Source: an uncultured Candidatus Rokubacteria bacterium (lineage in GTDB: Bacteria; Methylomirabilota; Methylomirabilia; Rokubacteriales; CSP1-6). Taken from it: a DNA stretch of 64,000 nt. Positions within the stretch are counted from its first letter, which is position 1, and the number at the start of each line of letters is the position of its first letter. A model generated the notes under the pieces. It was not told where the DNA came from. It did no database searches and saw only the letters and a list, made by a program, of their open reading frames with translations. The translations under genes and the position numbers were made by a program. Positions 19,331-57,758 of the stretch are shown piece by piece. The stretch is from positions 282,423 to 346,422 of the forward strand of contig CAVYTA010000007.1 of the NCBI GenBank assembly GCA_963771355.1. Direction: 5' to 3'.

Positions 19331-19962
19331 CTCGCCGCTTCAGCATCGACCTCATTCATCCCGGCCAGCTCTCCCTGACCTGGCAGGAATGGTTCGTCGG
19401 CAATCAGGGCGCGCGGCGCCTGGCGGCGGTCGCCCTCGCCGGCATCCTCGTGCTGGTGCTCATCATGGTCGGCGGCATCCTGCCGACCTACTGGCGCCTG
19501 TCGTCGGATCTCAACGCCATCCCGCGCCTCCAGAAGGACCTGGCGGCGTCGGAGGGCGACCTCAATGTCCTGCGGACCAACCTGCAGGCTCTCACGCTGG
19601 AGGCGCGGCGCCAGGTGCGCTGGGCCGGGCTCCTGGGCGCCCTCAGCCAGCACATTCCGCCCACCATACGCCTGCAGACGGTGGAGGCGTCGCGGCCCGC
19701 GCCGGCGGCGGGCGCCGCTCAGCCGCCCCCGGACGCGAAGGCGGAGGGCGTGCTGCGCATCGAGTCGGTCACGCCGGTGCGCTCGGGCAGCCAGCCGCTC
19801 CTGGAGGTGGCGCAGTTCATGGCCGGGCTCATGCGCGATCCCGCCGTGAATAAGCGGTTCCAGCTCAAGAGCTGGGACATCAAGCCGCCCGGCGGCGGGA
19901 GCGCGGAAGACGAGACCCAGTACCTCAACATCACCATCCTGCTCTCGGAGCGCGCCCAGTGA
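19327..19962 (+). CDS. pilN: PilN-like bitopic inner-membrane protein
   Basis: GTG overlaps the pilM stop (GTGA). Single TM LAAVALAGILVLVLIMVGGIL followed by a coiled-coil region. 211 aa. Confidence 0.6.
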   Translation: MTRRFSIDLIHPGQLSLTWQEWFVGNQGARRLAAVALAGILVLVLIMVGGILPTYWRLSSDLNAIPRLQKDLAASEGDLNVLRTNLQALTLEARRQVRWAGLLGALSQHIPPTIRLQTVEASRPAPAAGAAQPPPDAKAEGVLRIESVTPVRSGSQPLLEVAQFMAGLMRDPAVNKRFQLKSWDIKPPGGGSAEDETQYLNITILLSERAQ

Positions 19963-20630
19963 GAGGCCGCCCGCTCGCCCTCGCCTGGGTCGCGCTGGCG
20001 GTCGTCCTCGTGGTCCTCATCGGGGTGGCGCTCACGCAGTGGCGCTCGCTGGCCAGCCGCGGCCAGCGCGCATCGACCGAGCGGGTCCTCCTCGCCAATG
20101 AGATCCGGGCGAAGGAAGACCAGATCGTCACCTTGATGCGCGCCAACGTGGGATTGCTCCAGGAGATGCAGTGGACGTCGGCGGGCGGCGACCCGGCCGC
20201 CTTTCTCACCCGGCTGGCCGACCTCGCGCGCGAGAAGCGCATGAAGGTGATCGGCATCGGTCCCCTCGAGCGGTCCGCCACCGCGCAGTTCAACAAGTCG
20301 TGGCACACCATCCAGGTCGTGGGCCCCTACCGCGAGCTGCGCGACCTCGCCGGGCGCGTGGAGACGGAGAAGGGCATCCTCGAGGACGTCACGGTGACGG
20401 CGATCAAGGATGGAGGCCGCCTGGGCGCGTCGCGGGCGGACGAGATCGAGGCTCGCTTCAAGATGACCGCGCTCGAGCTGACGCCGGACGCGCGCAAGGT
20501 GTTCGAGCGCGCGATGGCGGCGAGTGGCGGGGCGGCCGCGGGCGCGACCGCCCCGTCGCTGGCGCTGCCCCTGCCGGCGGCGCCGGCGGAGGTCGGGAGC
20601 GATGCGCGCGATCCCTTCGCCATGACTACG
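19959..20630 (+). CDS. pilO: PilO-like protein; the reading frame continues without a stop (see finding)
   Basis: GTG overlaps the pilN stop. TM LALAWVALAVVLVVLIGVAL. PilO-like core ...WHTIQVVGPYRELRDLAGRVE.... The frame then runs into a Pro/Ala linker containing an RDPF motif (about 20607-20618). No in-frame stop occurs before pilQ, so the 3-prime end is undefined. Confidence 0.55.
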
Positions 20631-20730
20631 GCGATGCGCCGTCCGGCGCCGCCGGCAGGGGGCCGCCCGGCCGGCCGGCCCCTCCGCGGCCGGCCCCTCT
20701 CCGGCGGGGCCGGCCAGCGAGCCGCGCCCG

Positions 20731-20943
20731 GTGGGGTTCGAGCTGAAGGGGATCGTGGCCTTTCCCGGCGGCTATCTCGCCATCGTGAACAATCAGATCG
20801 TCAAGACCGGCGACACGGTCCTGGGCCACCGCGTCGAGCGGATCGCCGAGGACATGGTCGTCTTTCGCGAACCGGGCGGCGGCACCCGACAGGTGACCCT
20901 TCCCGGCCTGACCGAGGGGCCCCCCGGCGGGCCGAGGAGGTGA
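20731..20943 (+). CDS. pilP: PilP C-terminal beta-domain (in +1 frame relative to pilO; no own signal peptide)
   Basis: 70 aa from GTG: GFELKGIVAFPGGYLAIVNNQIVKTGDTVLGHRVERIAEDMVVFREPGG matches the PilP beta-sandwich pattern. An upstream stop in this frame lies at about 20623. Confidence 0.5.
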   Translation: MGFELKGIVAFPGGYLAIVNNQIVKTGDTVLGHRVERIAEDMVVFREPGGGTRQVTLPGLTEGPPGGPRR

Positions 20944-20951
20944 GGGACGCC

Positions 20952-22631
20952 ATGCAGGTCCGCATCCGTCGACTGGTGGGATTGCTCGTTCTCGCCCTGC
21001 TGGCGCTGCCCGCCGCCGCCCTCGCCCAGGGGCCGTGCGCCGATCGGCTGCCGACCGAGCGCATCACGCTCAACCTGCGCGATGCCAACGTCCAGACCAC
21101 GCTGCGCCTCCTCGCCCAGCAGTACCGCGTCAACATGGTCGTCACCGACGAGGTGAAGGGCACCATCACGCTCGACTTCTACCAGGTGCCCGCGCGTGAC
21201 ATCTTCCAGGTGGTGATCGACGCCGCCAATCTCCAGTGCGTGGAGGTCGGCGGCGTGCTGCGCGTGTCGAGCTTCTCCCGCCTCCGCGCGGAGGACGAGG
21301 AGCGGCGTAACGCGGCCGCGGAGCGCGGGCGGCGAGAGGCGGAGGCGGCCAAGAAGCAGGTGGAGGCCGACCGCGACCGGGACGACTTCGAGAAGGTGAA
21401 GGCGCGCGGCGCGGTCAAGGAGAAAACTATCCGCCTCTCCTACGCGAATGCGGAGGAGGTGGCCAAGACCATCCTCGGCATCCTCGGCCTGCCGCCGGAA
21501 GGTGCGCTGCCGCCCGCGGCGCCCATTCCCGGCGCGTACCTGCCGCCGCCCCCCATCAATATCCCGTCCACGCCGCCGCCCCCGCCCACCTCGCCCTTCG
21601 CGTCCACCGCCCTGGTCTCGCTCCCGGCCGAGGCCCTGGCCAAGGGGCTCACCGTGCGGGCCTACAAGCCCACCAATTCGGTGTTCATCCGCTACTACGA
21701 GCACGACCTCGAGCGGATCGAGAAGCTGATCAAGGAGCAGCTCGACATCCCGCTGCCCCAGGTGCAGATCGCCGCCACCATGGTCATCACCACCCAGAAC
21801 GCGCTGGAGCAGCTGGGCGTGCAATGGGGCGGCGCGGCCATCGGGAAGACGGCCGACGGCCGGGGACCCGCGGTGGTGGGCTCCGGCTTCGCCACCCCGC
21901 GCACCACCGGGACCGCGGGAACCGGCGTGGTGAACGGCCCCTTCAGCCCCAACACCAACTTCACCGGCTCCGATCTCCTGCCGGTGGCGCCCTCCACCGG
22001 GCTGCCCCTCGGCCAGAACCTCGTCAACCTCCCCACCTCGTTCCTGCCCACCCTGGCCAACCCCGCGATGGGAGTGCTCTTCGGCCTGGTGGGCGCGAAC
22101 TACAACGTGAGCCTCGCCATCCAGGCCCTCGAGCTGCAGGGGAAGGCCCGGAAGATCTCGGAGCCCAAGATCGTCACGGTGGAGAACGCCACCGCCGAGA
22201 TCTCCCGCGGATTCGAGGTGCCGTTCACGAGCTCCCCCACCGCGGACGTCTCCAACGTGCAGTTCAAGGACGCCCTGCTGCGATTGCAGGTGACGCCCAA
22301 CGTGATCTACGCCGACGGCGTGACCAAGATCCGCATGAAGATCCTCGTGGAGAACAACGAGCCGGACTTCACGCGGTCCATCAGCGGCAACCCGCCCATC
22401 TTCAAGCGGCGGACCGAGACGGAGGTGGTGGTGCAGGAGGGCGAGAAGCTGGTGATCGGCGGCGTCATGCTCGACAACTCGTCCAAGACCATCCGCAGCG
22501 TGCCGGTGCTGAGCAGGATCCCCATTTTCGGCTGGCTGTTCAAGTCCCGCGAGCTCAACTCCGACGGCGAGGAGCTGGTGGTCGTGCTGACGCCTTCGGT
22601 GGTCTCCTCCGGCCAGACGGCGGGGAGGTAG
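20952..22631 (+). CDS. pilQ: Type IV pilus secretin PilQ
   Basis: ATG 20952 sits 6 nt after GGAGGTGA. Signal peptide LVGLLVLALLALPAAALAQG. Secretin signature ...VPVLSRIPIFGWLFKSRELNSDGEELVVVLTP. 559 aa. Confidence 0.85.
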   Translation: MQVRIRRLVGLLVLALLALPAAALAQGPCADRLPTERITLNLRDANVQTTLRLLAQQYRVNMVVTDEVKGTITLDFYQVPARDIFQVVIDAANLQCVEVGGVLRVSSFSRLRAEDEERRNAAAERGRREAEAAKKQVEADRDRDDFEKVKARGAVKEKTIRLSYANAEEVAKTILGILGLPPEGALPPAAPIPGAYLPPPPINIPSTPPPPPTSPFASTALVSLPAEALAKGLTVRAYKPTNSVFIRYYEHDLERIEKLIKEQLDIPLPQVQIAATMVITTQNALEQLGVQWGGAAIGKTADGRGPAVVGSGFATPRTTGTAGTGVVNGPFSPNTNFTGSDLLPVAPSTGLPLGQNLVNLPTSFLPTLANPAMGVLFGLVGANYNVSLAIQALELQGKARKISEPKIVTVENATAEISRGFEVPFTSSPTADVSNVQFKDALLRLQVTPNVIYADGVTKIRMKILVENNEPDFTRSISGNPPIFKRRTETEVVVQEGEKLVIGGVMLDNSSKTIRSVPVLSRIPIFGWLFKSRELNSDGEELVVVLTPSVVSSGQTAGR

Positions 22632-53800: not shown

Positions 53801-53917
53801 TTCCCCGCGCGCGTGGCGAAGAGCCTCGACTATCCGTCGCGGAAGGACTTCCTCGAGGACTACCGGAAGCGCACCGCGTGGGTGCGCGCGCTGTGGAGCC
53901 GCGTGGTGCCGGCATGA
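50858..53917 (+). CDS. glnE: Bifunctional glutamine synthetase adenylyltransferase / adenylyl-removing enzyme
   Basis: 1019 aa. Two nucleotidyltransferase domains (GMGKLGGDELNYSSDIDLIFVY and GVGKLGGRELTTGSDLDLFVIF), each followed by a GlnE-type helical domain (HVKFGRGGLVDVEFITQ). Adjacent to glnB. Confidence 0.85.
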   Translation: MVDLLRAAPRDRKALAELRRRGFTEPGTALANLHGLAPSPAEGALLEPLLPRLLAELAAAPDPDMALNNLERLAAQGDRAALLRTLGGHPGAIHLLARLGGTSQFLADTLRRYPQLLAWLLEPSIMRQWLADDFEAELTASLAPFTRREARWNALRRFKYRQLLRIGSRDILGDADLTVTTEELSRLADVCLAAACRWAEEALEPRYGVPLAPDGTRTGFAVIGMGKLGGDELNYSSDIDLIFVYGDDGETSGGSEGPVPNGHYFAEAAKAVVAAVESMTDEGYAFRVDLRLRPEGRSGALILSLEGYRAYFADRAELWERQALIKARLAAGDGAVAARFFQLVRPFVFRPGLDEAIVADVRRMKQEIDRAQRAKGAERRNVKLGRGGIREVEFLAQALQLLYAGDDPWLRGGNTLRTLFRLTERGYLSPGQGRMLGDALVFLRNVEHRLQILHEFQTHTLPEDPRALGLLARRMGVALPPDAARRRFLAEYRRVTNGVHAAFREFFEARAIPRGVTPPRIPTFTALKATGFADPDRARQNLRLVLEGRPLLPYPARAGAALARMLPVLLDALWQSPDPDEALNQFERFVSAAGPRTAWLELLADHPALLTNLVRLCARGELVTQMLLTQPELLGGLADPATFAAQKTGREFRAALAPVLAPATLPERKDLLRRLKGAEELRATWRMLLGVTDAERFSTELTALAQAALATAWLMAVTDEARRHGVPRDAAGRFIDAVIVGVGKLGGRELTTGSDLDLFVIFDRDGMTDGALPIEAAVFYHQAVEMLQSLLGDITAAGIVFPVDLRLRPGSKGSTFAASVDSMAQYYREWADPWERQTLTRARLVAGDPGVGRRVRRLVSELLYGPTAAAPDLKEMRMLRERMEKELGKETPGLYHVKFGRGGLVDVEFITQAIQLVHGRRHPGIRRPNTLQAIRAIGAAGLLPAEDVAALAEQYRFLRRVSASLRLFGVRPSDTLELAGPFPARVAKSLDYPSRKDFLEDYRKRTAWVRALWSRVVPA

Positions 53918-56900
53918 GCCCGCGCCTCTTCATCCTCGACGGGCCCGGGTTCCTCTTCCGCGCCTATCACGCGCTGCCGTATCTCTCCACGTCGCGTGGC
54001 ATGCCGGTGAACGCGATACTGGGCATGTCCACCATGCTGTGGAAGCTGCTCCGGGAAGAGCAGCCGGACTACTTCGCGGTGGCGTGGGACCCGCCCGGCC
54101 CGACCTTTCGAGATGAGAAATTCGCCGCCTACAAGGAGACGCGCGCGGCCACGCCGGACGACCTGCGGCGCCAGATCCCCGTGGTCATGCAGCTGTTCGA
54201 GGCCCTTCGGCTGCCCCTGCTCGAGGTGCCGGGCTTCGAGGCCGACGACGTGCTGGGCACCGTGGTGGACCGGGCCCGCGCGCAGGATCTCGACGTGGTG
54301 CTCGTCACCAGCGACAAGGACATGCTCCAGCTCGTCGGGCCGCGGGTGCGCGTGCTCGCGCCGGGCGCGCGCGCGGGCGAGCAGGTCCTCTACGACGCGG
54401 ACAAGGTCCGCGAGAAGTGGGGCGTGGGGCCCGAGCAGATTCCTGATCTCCTCGCGCTGATGGGCGACTCCATCGACAATATCCCCGGCGTGCCCGGCGT
54501 GGGCCAGAAGACCGCGGTCAAGCTCATCGGCCAGTTCGGCTCGGTGGACGGGCTCTACGACCACCTCACCCTCGTGCCCGGCAAGCTGCGCGAGACGCTG
54601 GCCGCCAATCGCAAGCAGGCGCTGCTCTCGCGCGAGCTGGCCACCGTGAGCACCCGCGTGCCTCTGCCCGAGGATCTCGAGGGCCTGCGGCGCCAGGAGC
54701 CGGACTGGGAGCGCCTGCGCGCGCTGTGGACCGAGCTCGAGCTGCGCACCTTGCTCCGCCAGCTCCCGGAGCAGCCCGGCGCGCCGGTGGAGATGGCGGA
54801 CGAGCTGCCCGTCGACAGCCCCGAGGCCCTGGCCGCCTTTCTGGCCAAGGTTCCCGCGGGCGAGCCGCTCGCGGTGGACTGGATGGGGGAGGGAGGGCCG
54901 CCGAGTCCCGAGGTCACGCGCGTGGGCCTGCATCACCCGGCCGCCGGCGACGTGCTCGTGGCCGCGGAGACCCTCGGGCCGCTGGCCGGCCGCACCCTCA
55001 TCGGGCACGACCTGAAGCCCCTGCTGGAGTGGTGGCTCGCGCGCGGGGAGCCGGCCCCTCCGGTGGAGGACACCGCGGTGGCCGCGTACCTCCTCAACTC
55101 GGCGCGCAGCAACTACAAGCTCGAGGAAGTGTGCGCCGAGCACCTGGGCGAGGGGCCGGGGCTCGCGCGCCCGGGCGGCCGGGCGCGCTGGGTGTGGCAG
55201 CTCTGGGAGCAGGAGGCGCGCGAGCTGCGGGAGGCCACCCTCCGCGCGCTCTACGACGAGATCGAGCGCCCCCTCATCCCCGTCCTCGCCTCCATGGAGC
55301 GCCACGGCGTCACCGTGGATCCCGCCCGCCTCGCCGAGTTCTCGAAGGAGCTGGATCGCAGCCTCGGCAACCTGACGGGGGAGATCTACACGCTCGCCGG
55401 CGAGCAGTTCAACCTGGGCTCGCCCAAGCAGCTCGCCACCATCCTCTTCGAGAAGCTGCGGCTGCCGCCGGTGCGGAAGACCAAGACCGGCTACTCCACC
55501 GACGCCGACGTGCTCGAGCAGCTCGCGCTGAGCCACGCGCTGCCCGCCAAGATCATCGAGCACCGCACGCTGGCCAAGCTCAAGTCGACCTACGCGGACG
55601 CGCTGCCCCTCATGATCAACGCCGAGACCGGGCGCATCCACACGTCGCTGAACCAGCTCGTGGCGGCGACGGGGCGGCTCTCCTGCCTGCCCGCGGGCAC
55701 GCTGGTCAATACCCGGAGAGGGCTGGTCGGAATCGAGACGGTGCGACCCGGTGAGCACATCCATACCTCACGCGGCATGCAGATCGTCCAGGCCTCGGAG
55801 TGCACGGGAGTGAAGCCGGTCGTCGCCCTCCACCTGTCCAACGGGACGATCTTTCGATGCAGTCCGGAACACCGGCTCCGGAGCAAGGGGGTCTGGAAGA
55901 CCGCCGAAGAGATCGGGGCCGGAGACCCGCTCTACATGACGTTTCGCGAAGGCATGTTCGGGGATCGCCTCCGGCTCGACGTGGCGCGGACCGCCGACTA
56001 TGAAACGCGGAAGTCTCCTCGAATTCCGGCGGAATGGTCGGTGGAGCTCGCCGAGCTGGTCGGCTATGCGATGGCGGACGGCCACATCGCCCGGAGCAAC
56101 TACAACGGTAAGCCGGCCAAGCTCGTTCTCGCGTTCGGGTGGGATGAAGACGCGCTCGAGCAGCGGATGGCCCAGCACATCGTCAAGCTCTTCGGCAAGG
56201 AGCCTACCTTCAGGGTCACTCGCACCTGCCCGGTTCTGGAAGTGTCCGGCGTGGACATCGGGGGCTTCATCGAGCAGATAGGCGCGGGCGGGTTGTCGGG
56301 TGCGCTGAGAGTGCCGCCGTCCTTGTTCCAGGCTCCGAAAGGGCGTGGTGGCGCGCATTTCTTCGAGGATACTTCGAGGGGGATGGCTCCGCTGATCCAC
56401 TGAGTGTTCGATCCGTCTCGAGGGGGATGCTGGAGGATGTCCACTACCTCCTGACGCTGTTCGGCATTCCGAGCCGCATTCGAGAGGGAGAGCTCGATCC
56501 TCGAGGCTACGCGCCGCGCCACACGCTCAGGATTCTGGGAGATCGCTCCAAGCGGACATTCCTCGGGAGTATCGGGTTCCTGAGCTCGAGGAAGATCGAG
56601 CGACTCGCGGAGTTCGCGAATCGACCGAAGGCGAAGAGCAAGAGTGAGCTGCTCACGCTCAGAGATCCGGCCGACGTTCTGGACCTCATGCCGACCATCT
56701 TCGAAGCCGCACGCTCATCCGATGGAGGAGTGTCGCCGTCACTCTATCAGTTTGCCCACACGTTCGCGGCGGGGCGCACGACGATCACGCTGGGCCGGGC
56801 CGAGCAGATCCGGCGAGCAATCCGGCTACGAGTATCGACTCCACCGGCCTATCTCGCCGAGATCGTCGGCAGTCAGTACTTCGAGGTTCACGTCGAGCGT

Positions 56901-57758
56901 GTCGAGTTCGAGGCGTCGGTACCGATGTACGACATCGCAGTGTCCGGTGAACAATACATGGCGCAGGGCATCGTCGTGCACAATTCCGCCCTGCCCAATT
57001 TACAAAACATACCCGTGCGCACCGAGCTGGGCCGGCGCATCCGCGCCGCGTTCGTGCCCGCGCCGGGCTGGCGCTTCGTGGCCGCGGACTACTCGCAGAT
57101 CGAGCTGCGCCTGCTCGCCCACGTCTCCGGCGAGGAGAGCCTGGTGGAGGCCTTCCGGAACGGCGAGGACATTCATCGGCGCACGGCCGCGGAGGTGTTC
57201 GGCGTACCGCTCGCGGAGGTGACGTCCACCCAGCGCGACGCCGCCAAGACCACCAACTTCTCCGTGATCTACGGGGTCACCGCCTTCGGGCTCGCCCGCG
57301 GGCTCGGCATCTCCTCCCGCGAGGCGCAGGACTTCCTCGACCGCTTCTTCGCGCGGCACCCCAAGGTGCGGGCGTACCTCGACGCCACCGTCAAGGAAGG
57401 GCGCAGCAAGGGCTTCGTGCAGACGCTCTTCGGCCGGCGGCGGTACCTGCCCGAGCTGCGGAGCGGCAACCCCAACCTGCGCGGCTTCGCGGAGCGGATG
57501 GCCACGAACGCTCCCATCCAGGGCACCGCCGCCGACCTCATCAAGATCGCCATGATCCGGATGGCGCGGGCGCTGGAGGCGGGGCGCTTCGCGACCCGCA
57601 TGCTGCTCCAGGTGCACGACGAGCTGCTCTTCGAGGCGCCGCCGGACGAGGAGAAGCGCCTCGAGGCGCTCGCCGCCGAGGTGATGGAGGGCGCGATGAC
57701 GCTGGACGTCCCCCTCAAGGTGGACGTCAAGGTCGGGGCCGACTGGGCCGAGGTGTGA
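53914..57758 (+). CDS. polA: DNA polymerase I, interrupted by an intein; intein coding region contains a -1 frameshift and a premature TGA
   Basis: ATG 53914 overlaps the glnE stop (ATGA). 5-prime nuclease domain LFILDGPGFLFRAYHAL. Polymerase domain runs ...RIHTSLNQLVAATGRLS, then an intein, then SALPNLQNIPVRTELGRRIRAAFV...DYSQIELRLLAHVSGE (motif A)...QVHDELLFE (motif C). Upstream part is in the frame of 53914 to the TGA at 56401-56403. Downstream part is in the frame of ORF 56427..57758. Confidence 0.8.
55684..56984 (+). mobile_element. Intein with LAGLIDADG homing-endonuclease domain inserted in polA (frameshifted)
   Basis: Begins CLPAGTLV (block A, Cys1). TxxH-like SPEH (block B). First LAGLIDADG motif LVGYAMADGHI. 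The second LAGLIDADG motif, FLRGYFEGDGS, is readable only in the -1 frame upstream of the TGA. Ends GIVVHN, followed by the extein Ser. Length is 1301 nt; 1302 nt would be in frame. Confidence 0.75.

Follow-up and report, generated by a model that had tools for sequence, protein, structure and literature searches.

A class-1 intein in the DNA polymerase I gene of an uncultured Rokubacteria bacterium, and the frame break within it

Is the DNA polymerase I gene (polA) of an uncultured Candidatus Rokubacteria bacterium a broken gene, or an intact gene that carries an intein and was assembled with errors? We asked this of a 64,000-nt stretch of GenBank assembly GCA_963771355.1 (contig CAVYTA010000007.1, positions 282,423 to 346,422 of the forward strand; hereafter the window), in which polA lies on the plus strand as two open reading frames (ORFs), 53878–56403 in frame 1 and 56427–57758 in frame 0. 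An earlier, sequence-only reading had placed a full-length LAGLIDADG intein at 55684–56984 and a single -1 frameshift within it. We find that the element, which sits in a family-A DNA polymerase I, is a class-1 intein containing a LAGLIDADG homing endonuclease of the double-motif type, and that the break in its frame is probably an assembly or consensus artefact consisting of two spurious bases.

Anatomy of the intein and its host gene

The first ORF encodes ordinary Pol I through ...LVAATGRLS and then continues as CLPAGTLVNT... from 55684. In the second, the foreign part closes with ...QGIVVHN at 56984, and host sequence resumes as SALPNLQNIPVR.... The parts of the gene are as follows.

53878–55683, plus strand: polA N-extein (frame 1 ORF, Pfam matches), with the 5'-3' exonuclease, the 3'-5' exonuclease-like region and the first third of the polymerase domain
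55684–56984, plus strand: intein, class-1 splicing domain and LAGLIDADG endonuclease; 1301 nt in the sequence given, or 433 codons (1299 nt) once two extra bases are removed
55684–55713, plus strand: splicing block A, CLPAGTLVNT, with the Cys1 nucleophile, by family conservation
55861–55872, plus strand: splicing block B, S60-P-E-H63 (the TxxH position); CSPEH or CSPDH in all alleles covering the region
56047–56082, plus strand: LAGLIDADG motif 1, LAELVGYAMADG, with Asp132 kept in the family alignment
56355–56390, plus strand: LAGLIDADG motif 2, AFLRGYFEGDGS (AFLRGYFEGDG), with Asp233 kept; readable only in frame 0
56919–56984, plus strand: splicing blocks F and G, VPMYDIAV...QGIVVHN, ending in His-Asn; M414, Y415, H432 and N433 are invariant
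56985–57758, plus strand: polA C-extein, from the +1 Ser to the stop codon inclusive (Pfam DNA_pol_A)

The host protein is a DNA polymerase I by its content, a 5'-3' exonuclease with a family-A polymerase domain that has motifs A, B and C. Its N-extein, with a likely start codon at ATG 53914, matches 5_3_exonuc_N (3.8e-53), 5_3_exonuc (7.8e-33) and positions 3–122 of the DNA_pol_A profile; the C-extein matches positions 124–381 (1.4e-111) and contains DYSQIELR, RDAAKTTNFSVIYG and QVHDE. The host is thus interrupted at one point, as had been read from the contiguity of PolA up to ...ATGRLS and its resumption after the element. The junction, TGRLS|SxxPNLQNIP, falls between two serines, here between ...ATGRLS and SALPNLQNIP, and without the intein would read ...ACGGGGCGGCTCTCC|TCCGCCCTGCCCAAT... 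in nucleotides. It lies about 34 residues ahead of the motif A aspartate, in keeping with the proposed position just before motif A. We take the corresponding point in E. coli Pol I to be between S670 and S671, presumably adjoining R668, which contacts the primer, and 34 residues ahead of D705 of motif A. Active-site motifs are a typical placement for inteins.

Within the element, every class-1 landmark is present: Cys1, block B, blocks F and G, the His-Asn pair, the +1 Ser, and two LAGLIDADG motifs with D132 and D233. The Cys1 codon (TGC, 55684–55686) directly follows ...ATGRLS, and ...VVHN is followed by the +1 Ser at 56976–56987 (Ser TCC, 56985–56987) and then ALPNLQNIPVR. The proposed coordinates, catalytic residues and motifs therefore hold, as does the Pfam assignment of the endonuclease: residues 224–298 match PF14528 (LAGLIDADG_3) at 63.2 bits (cut-off 22.5). 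A lack of intein blocks on proper alignment had been named as the finding that would speak against an intein; the family alignment shows conservation of blocks A, B, F and G as well as of the two LAGLIDADG motifs. The element also matches the intein portions of several intein-containing NCBIfam models, and PDB sequence searches match PI-PkoII, VMA inteins and PI-PfuI, with PI-MtuI marginal.

The fold agrees with this assignment. As a proxy for the window sequence we used an AlphaFold model of the P0001 allele, which is 84% identical to the window intein (predicted local distance difference test score, pLDDT, 74; predicted template modelling score, pTM, 0.78). The model is a Hint plus LAGLIDADG fold, and its best Foldseek matches are TliVMA (7qss, E 1e-17), PI-PfuI, PI-PkoII and PI-SceI; free LAGLIDADG enzymes such as I-DmoI rank after these.

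One score weighs against the assignment. The Pfam Intein_splicing match reaches 26.4 bits, under its 35.8 cut-off, so the splicing domain is assigned on blocks, fold and context. That shortfall is what speaks for the segment being something else, a free-standing homing-endonuclease gene or another insertion that splits polA. Such an insertion would have to account for Cys1, SPEH, the terminal HN and the +1 Ser, all in frame with both exteins in relatives, for a DNA_pol_A profile that picks up at the very next position (122/124), and for a Hint-LAGLIDADG model resembling the VMA, PI-PfuI and PI-SceI inteins. We consider it refuted by the family alignment, the intact relatives and the fold match, and give it next to no probability.

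Around polA lie glnE, coaE, rsmA and a penicillin amidase gene; these neighbours, together with the best matches of a gene close by, indicate Methylomirabilota as the organism of the window. The guanine-plus-cytosine (GC) content of the intein is 0.63, against 0.71–0.72 in the exteins. Just past the junction, the first conserved codons of the C-extein, at 56997–57011, are AAT TTA CAA AAC ATA. Of these five, three have A or T in third position, TTA (Leu) and ATA (Ile) among them, against a third-position GC of about 94% in polA. A distant Pyrinomonadaceae genome (L017) has AAT TTA CAA AAT ATT at the same codons. These codons could be flanking sequence acquired from a donor allele by co-conversion, or may reflect a target-site constraint of the endonuclease.

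Composition and origin of the frame break

As written, the extein-intein-extein path does not run in one frame: the reading frame passes from 1 to 2 to 0 within the intein. SLFQAPK is in frame 1, KGVVA in frame 2 (56339–56353) and AFLRGYFEGDGS in frame 0. The window polA therefore cannot make a spliceable precursor as written, a claim of the sequence-only reading that the frame break bears out. The second LAGLIDADG motif is, as claimed, readable only after a shift (frame 0 against frame 1 of the N-extein), but the shift is made of two one-base insertions rather than a single -1 step. Close homologues read ...FQ[AGS]PKGVVA[AG]FLRGYFEGDGS... across the break, and DNA alignments of the window intein with six related loci (L001, L002, L005, L006, L007 and L008) place the lesion.

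56338–56344, plus strand: first extra base, in AAAGGGC (about 56344), frame 1 to 2; missing from all six related loci and present in the window only
56351–56357, plus strand: second extra base, in GCGCGCA / GGCGCGCA (about 56353/4), frame 2 to 0; common to the window and L002 and not in L001, L005, L007 or L008
56401–56403, plus strand: TGA that ends the N-extein frame; out of frame in the homologous reading, so that it results from the shift and is no feature of its own

The first insertion adjoins short A and G runs, and L006 carries an extra base of its own a few nucleotides from 56353/4. Deleting both bases from the window gives a stop-free intein of 1299 nt and 433 codons that reads ...APKGVVAAFLRGYFEGDGS..., brings back V222, A223 and F225, three residues that do not vary in the family alignment, and yields KGVVAAF, identical to P0002 and P0005. 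One missing base near a ttcgagg repeat had been suspected instead. The repeat exists (56362–56368 and 56374–56380), but the lesion is two extra bases, 10–20 nt upstream of it. Repair by adding one base yields KGRGGA where the family has an invariant V-A, and this model was rejected. The in-frame TGA that had been noted does close frame 1, yet it is merely the first stop of a wrong frame.

Relatives of the gene are open where the window is broken. A scan of GTDB with one genome per species gave 15 full-length copies (L007–L021), all at the same site, TGRLS|C...HN|S, and all with an intein free of stops. In 14 of the 15 the frame is open across both exteins, for 1300–1790 aa, and one of these uninterrupted copies is on a complete Rubrivirga chromosome. 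The remaining genome, L021, has a shorter open frame upstream and masked N bases in its N-extein segment. L001 is open from partway in the N-extein through the intein and C-extein.

Assemblies close to the window, meanwhile, are rich in broken genes. The nearest sister contigs come from one ENA series (ERZ25039xxx; L001–L006: ERZ25039456, ...490, ...531, ...586, ...596), where glnE, polA, coaE and the penicillin amidase gene are in two to four pieces in L003, L005 and L006, glnE is fragmented in L002, and the polA N-extein in L001; protein predictions from this series call for caution. Indels in the intein differ by contig: +1,+1 in the window, +1,-1,+1 within 150 nt in L002, +1 in L005, twelve insertion events in L006, and none in L001 or the short-read contigs L007 and L008. 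Over 13 kb of alignment between the window and L007, the net frame-breaking indels in coding regions are the two intein bases alone. The second polA ORF is identical to P0026, a protein recorded from an 812,585-nt metagenomic contig, whose length suggests a long-read metagenome assembly.

The window has a second gene of this kind. Threaded on its intact homologue P0031, the CHASE2 adenylate/guanylate cyclase gene (11544–13514, minus strand) shows about 12 changes of frame over 1 kb, worst at 12290–13290, and at position 169 the match to the Pfam CHASE2 profile passes from one frame to another. The pieces that are in frame have kept a high similarity to P0031, which is unlike a real pseudogene, and the damage looks like consensus indel errors clustered in one patch. 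A heuristic scan of the whole window for frame switches, based on GC content at third codon positions, clearly marks polA and CHASE2 alone, with a pilP-like gene as one further possible case.

Selection on the intein was gauged from the ratio of non-synonymous to synonymous divergence (dN/dS), which is 0.11–0.18 in every pair; the C-extein gives 0.046 against L001 and contains no indel. Between the window and L002, which are 99.2% identical and share the insertion at 56353/4, 31 intein positions differ, 23 nt making synonymous and 8 nt non-synonymous codon changes. Had the frameshift been present since before the two alleles parted, neutral change should have accumulated after it; the low dN/dS seen instead is a signature of purifying selection and unlike a pseudogene.

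Of the three explanations that the sequence-only reading had left standing, an assembly or consensus error is thus favoured, a recent inactivation of polA retains a minor share of the probability, and translational frameshifting fails, intact relatives being unshifted. Several points weigh against an artefact. The reading is drawn from assembled sequences. The insertion at 56353/4 recurs in L002, a separate assembly, and could be a true ancestral mutation instead of a systematic basecalling error. The rest of the window is of good quality; glnE, coaE, rsmA and the amidase gene are all whole at places where the sister contigs have breaks. Some bacteria tolerate loss of the Pol I polymerase domain while keeping the 5'-3' exonuclease, which makes a real truncation biologically possible. 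If the frameshift were real, insertions in the endonuclease region would have left polA a recent pseudogene, its polymerase domain newly lost, that encodes no more than a stub besides the 5'-3' exonuclease and the exonuclease-like region. The shared insertion and the remaining 13-kb neighbourhood, which has no frame-breaking indel, would both fit, and homing endonucleases are expected to decay after fixation under the established homing-cycle model. What makes this unlikely is the excess of synonymous over non-synonymous change between the very alleles that share the insertion, the constrained, indel-free C-extein, the noise-like pattern of L002, the many frame switches of CHASE2, the broken genes of the sister assemblies, and the stop-free inteins of all 15 GTDB carriers, 14 of them open through both exteins. 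A shade less likely again is the fuller scenario, a soil Methylomirabilota lineage that has lost the polymerase domain of Pol I to frameshifts in a decaying intein endonuclease but goes on making the essential 5'-3' exonuclease. If true, a selfish element would here have disabled its host gene in nature; the sole positive hint is the insertion shared by two assemblies.

Programmed ribosomal frameshifting or stop-codon recoding across 56340–56403 has in its favour a frame change within an otherwise conserved gene, and nothing more. It would require two successive +1 events 9 nt apart, whereas L001, L007, L008 and the remaining GTDB genomes read straight through, so that no related intact allele shifts here, and the TGA lies outside the homologous frame. 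Reading of the sequence at 56330–56360 revealed no heptanucleotide slippery site. We regard recoding as extremely improbable. Two spurious bases thus remain our preferred explanation, and we infer how they could arise: no stretch of the locus varies as much as the intein, and reads from co-occurring strains with divergent alleles, collapsed to one consensus, would invite indel errors there. For annotation, a polA that resembles a frameshifted pseudogene is probably an intact, intein-containing polA, to be corrected by dropping two bases and not by adding one.

Separately, the possible third break marked by the scan lies at 20560–20943 on the plus strand. The frame of the ORF at 19959–22631 holds an RDPF-containing, PilO/PilP-like N-terminal part, and a PilP-like beta-domain (GFELKGIVAFPGGYLAIVNNQIVKTGDTV...) is in another frame, at 20626–20943, with no obvious start codon.

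Proposed working, carriers and allele exchange

In the organism, polA is most likely intact, and its precursor would be translated in one frame. Splicing would then proceed by an N-S acyl shift at Cys1, trans-esterification to Ser+1, cyclisation of Asn433 aided by His432, and an O-N shift, releasing normal Pol I and a free endonuclease. The latter could cut intein-less polA alleles and so spread by homing. Both activities, splicing and homing, we infer from sequence; the signs related to homing are a single site filled across phyla, raised synonymous divergence (dS) in the intein, and mosaic alleles.

Carriers of the allele at TGRLS|S span at least seven bacterial phyla and are mainly metagenome-assembled. 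They include Methylomirabilota/Rokuibacteriota, Deferrimicrobiaceae, Anaerolineae and Oscillochloris (Chloroflexota), Rhodothermales, Rubrivirga, Bacteroidota, Acidobacteria/Pyrinomonadaceae, Acetothermia and Fraserbacteria. Block A reads CLPAGT in 14 of the 15 GTDB genomes and CLSAGT in L018. A protein search returned 22 relatives of the intein, nearly all also matching DNA_pol_A; a 1339-aa full-length PolA-intein protein is on record (P0028). In that search, the closest JGI allele spanning the frameshift region is 63% identical, and a near-identical JGI fragment (P0023) spans the last intein residues and C-extein only. Most alleles keep both catalytic aspartates; P0007 reads FEGYG at a LAGLIDADG motif, and its endonuclease is, to judge by this substitution, probably inactive. 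A tblastn search of 50,697 phage records found no phage PolA with this allele, only distant inteins (at most 28% identity) in terminase, helicase and portal genes.

One carrier has an unexpected label. L007 (DASRWT010000041.1) is filed as Candidatus Nitrosocosmicus, an archaeon, but has 72% GC, the gene order of the window and 89% identity to it over 13 kb, and is almost certainly a mis-binned Methylomirabilota contig.

The intein diverges faster than the gene around it. Its dS is 0.46–0.56 against 0.13–0.27 in the flanking exteins of the same genome pairs, a two- to fourfold difference. Against L002, the window differs by 2.4% in the intein and about 0.3% in the flanks; against L001, by 17% and 2–3.6%. 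The alleles are also mosaic: the window is 89–100% identical to L001 at 55600–56100 and 56–71% at 56500–56900, and at 56800–56899 its intein is 97% identical to that of L007. Together, the mosaics and the raised dS suggest that homing or gene conversion may have passed alleles from lineage to lineage, instead of the alleles diverging in strict step with polA. One Pol I intein allele thus occupies the same site across phyla, with signs of ongoing movement; for the mechanism of inteins, nothing in the window changes current understanding.

Comparison with known inteins

Bacterial Pol I is already a listed intein host. In their account of hosts, Novikova et al. 2016 (PMC4760082) name bacterial "primary repair DNA polymerase I" outside the top 15 and among "other" hosts, in line with the claim that Pol I inteins are uncommon, and the host list of a 2018 review (PMC5874633) includes "Bacterial DNA polymerase I (PolA)". 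These catalogued inteins share the host protein class with the window intein, a comparison that extends to host only and not to allele or insertion site. Our literature search, which did not extend to the supplement of Novikova et al. 2016, found no paper that applies "PolA intein" or "Pol I intein" to a bacterial element or names its insertion site; in the literature searched, such inteins are barely described. The window intein is an uncharacterised addition to this class, mechanistically ordinary and fairly widespread in uncultured bacteria.

Its solved counterparts are TliVMA and PhoVMA (7qss, 7qst), PI-PfuI (1dq3), PI-PkoII (2cw7) and PI-SceI (1lws), in which a Hint domain is likewise split by a two-motif LAGLIDADG endonuclease. 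They share Cys1, the block B His and the terminal His-Asn followed by a nucleophile with the window intein, which is merely 11–20% identical to them. Three differences stand out. The host here is a bacterial family-A polymerase, in place of V-ATPase, ribonucleotide reductase or archaeal PolB; Ser occupies the +1 position; and about 100 additional, mostly helical residues lie between the endonuclease core and block F. No other part of the intein is as divergent as this region (residues about 300–400, window about 56585–56885; pLDDT 60–70), which has no Pfam match and may serve as an accessory domain for DNA binding.

The nearest parallel in placement is found in the family-B polymerases of Thermococcales, whose inteins, PI-PkoII among them, likewise sit in conserved catalytic-site motifs of a DNA polymerase and carry a LAGLIDADG endonuclease. 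PI-PkoII is also the closest PDB sequence match to a single-sequence query. The host polymerases are unrelated and the insertion sites different, so that the likeness is restricted to the intein itself.

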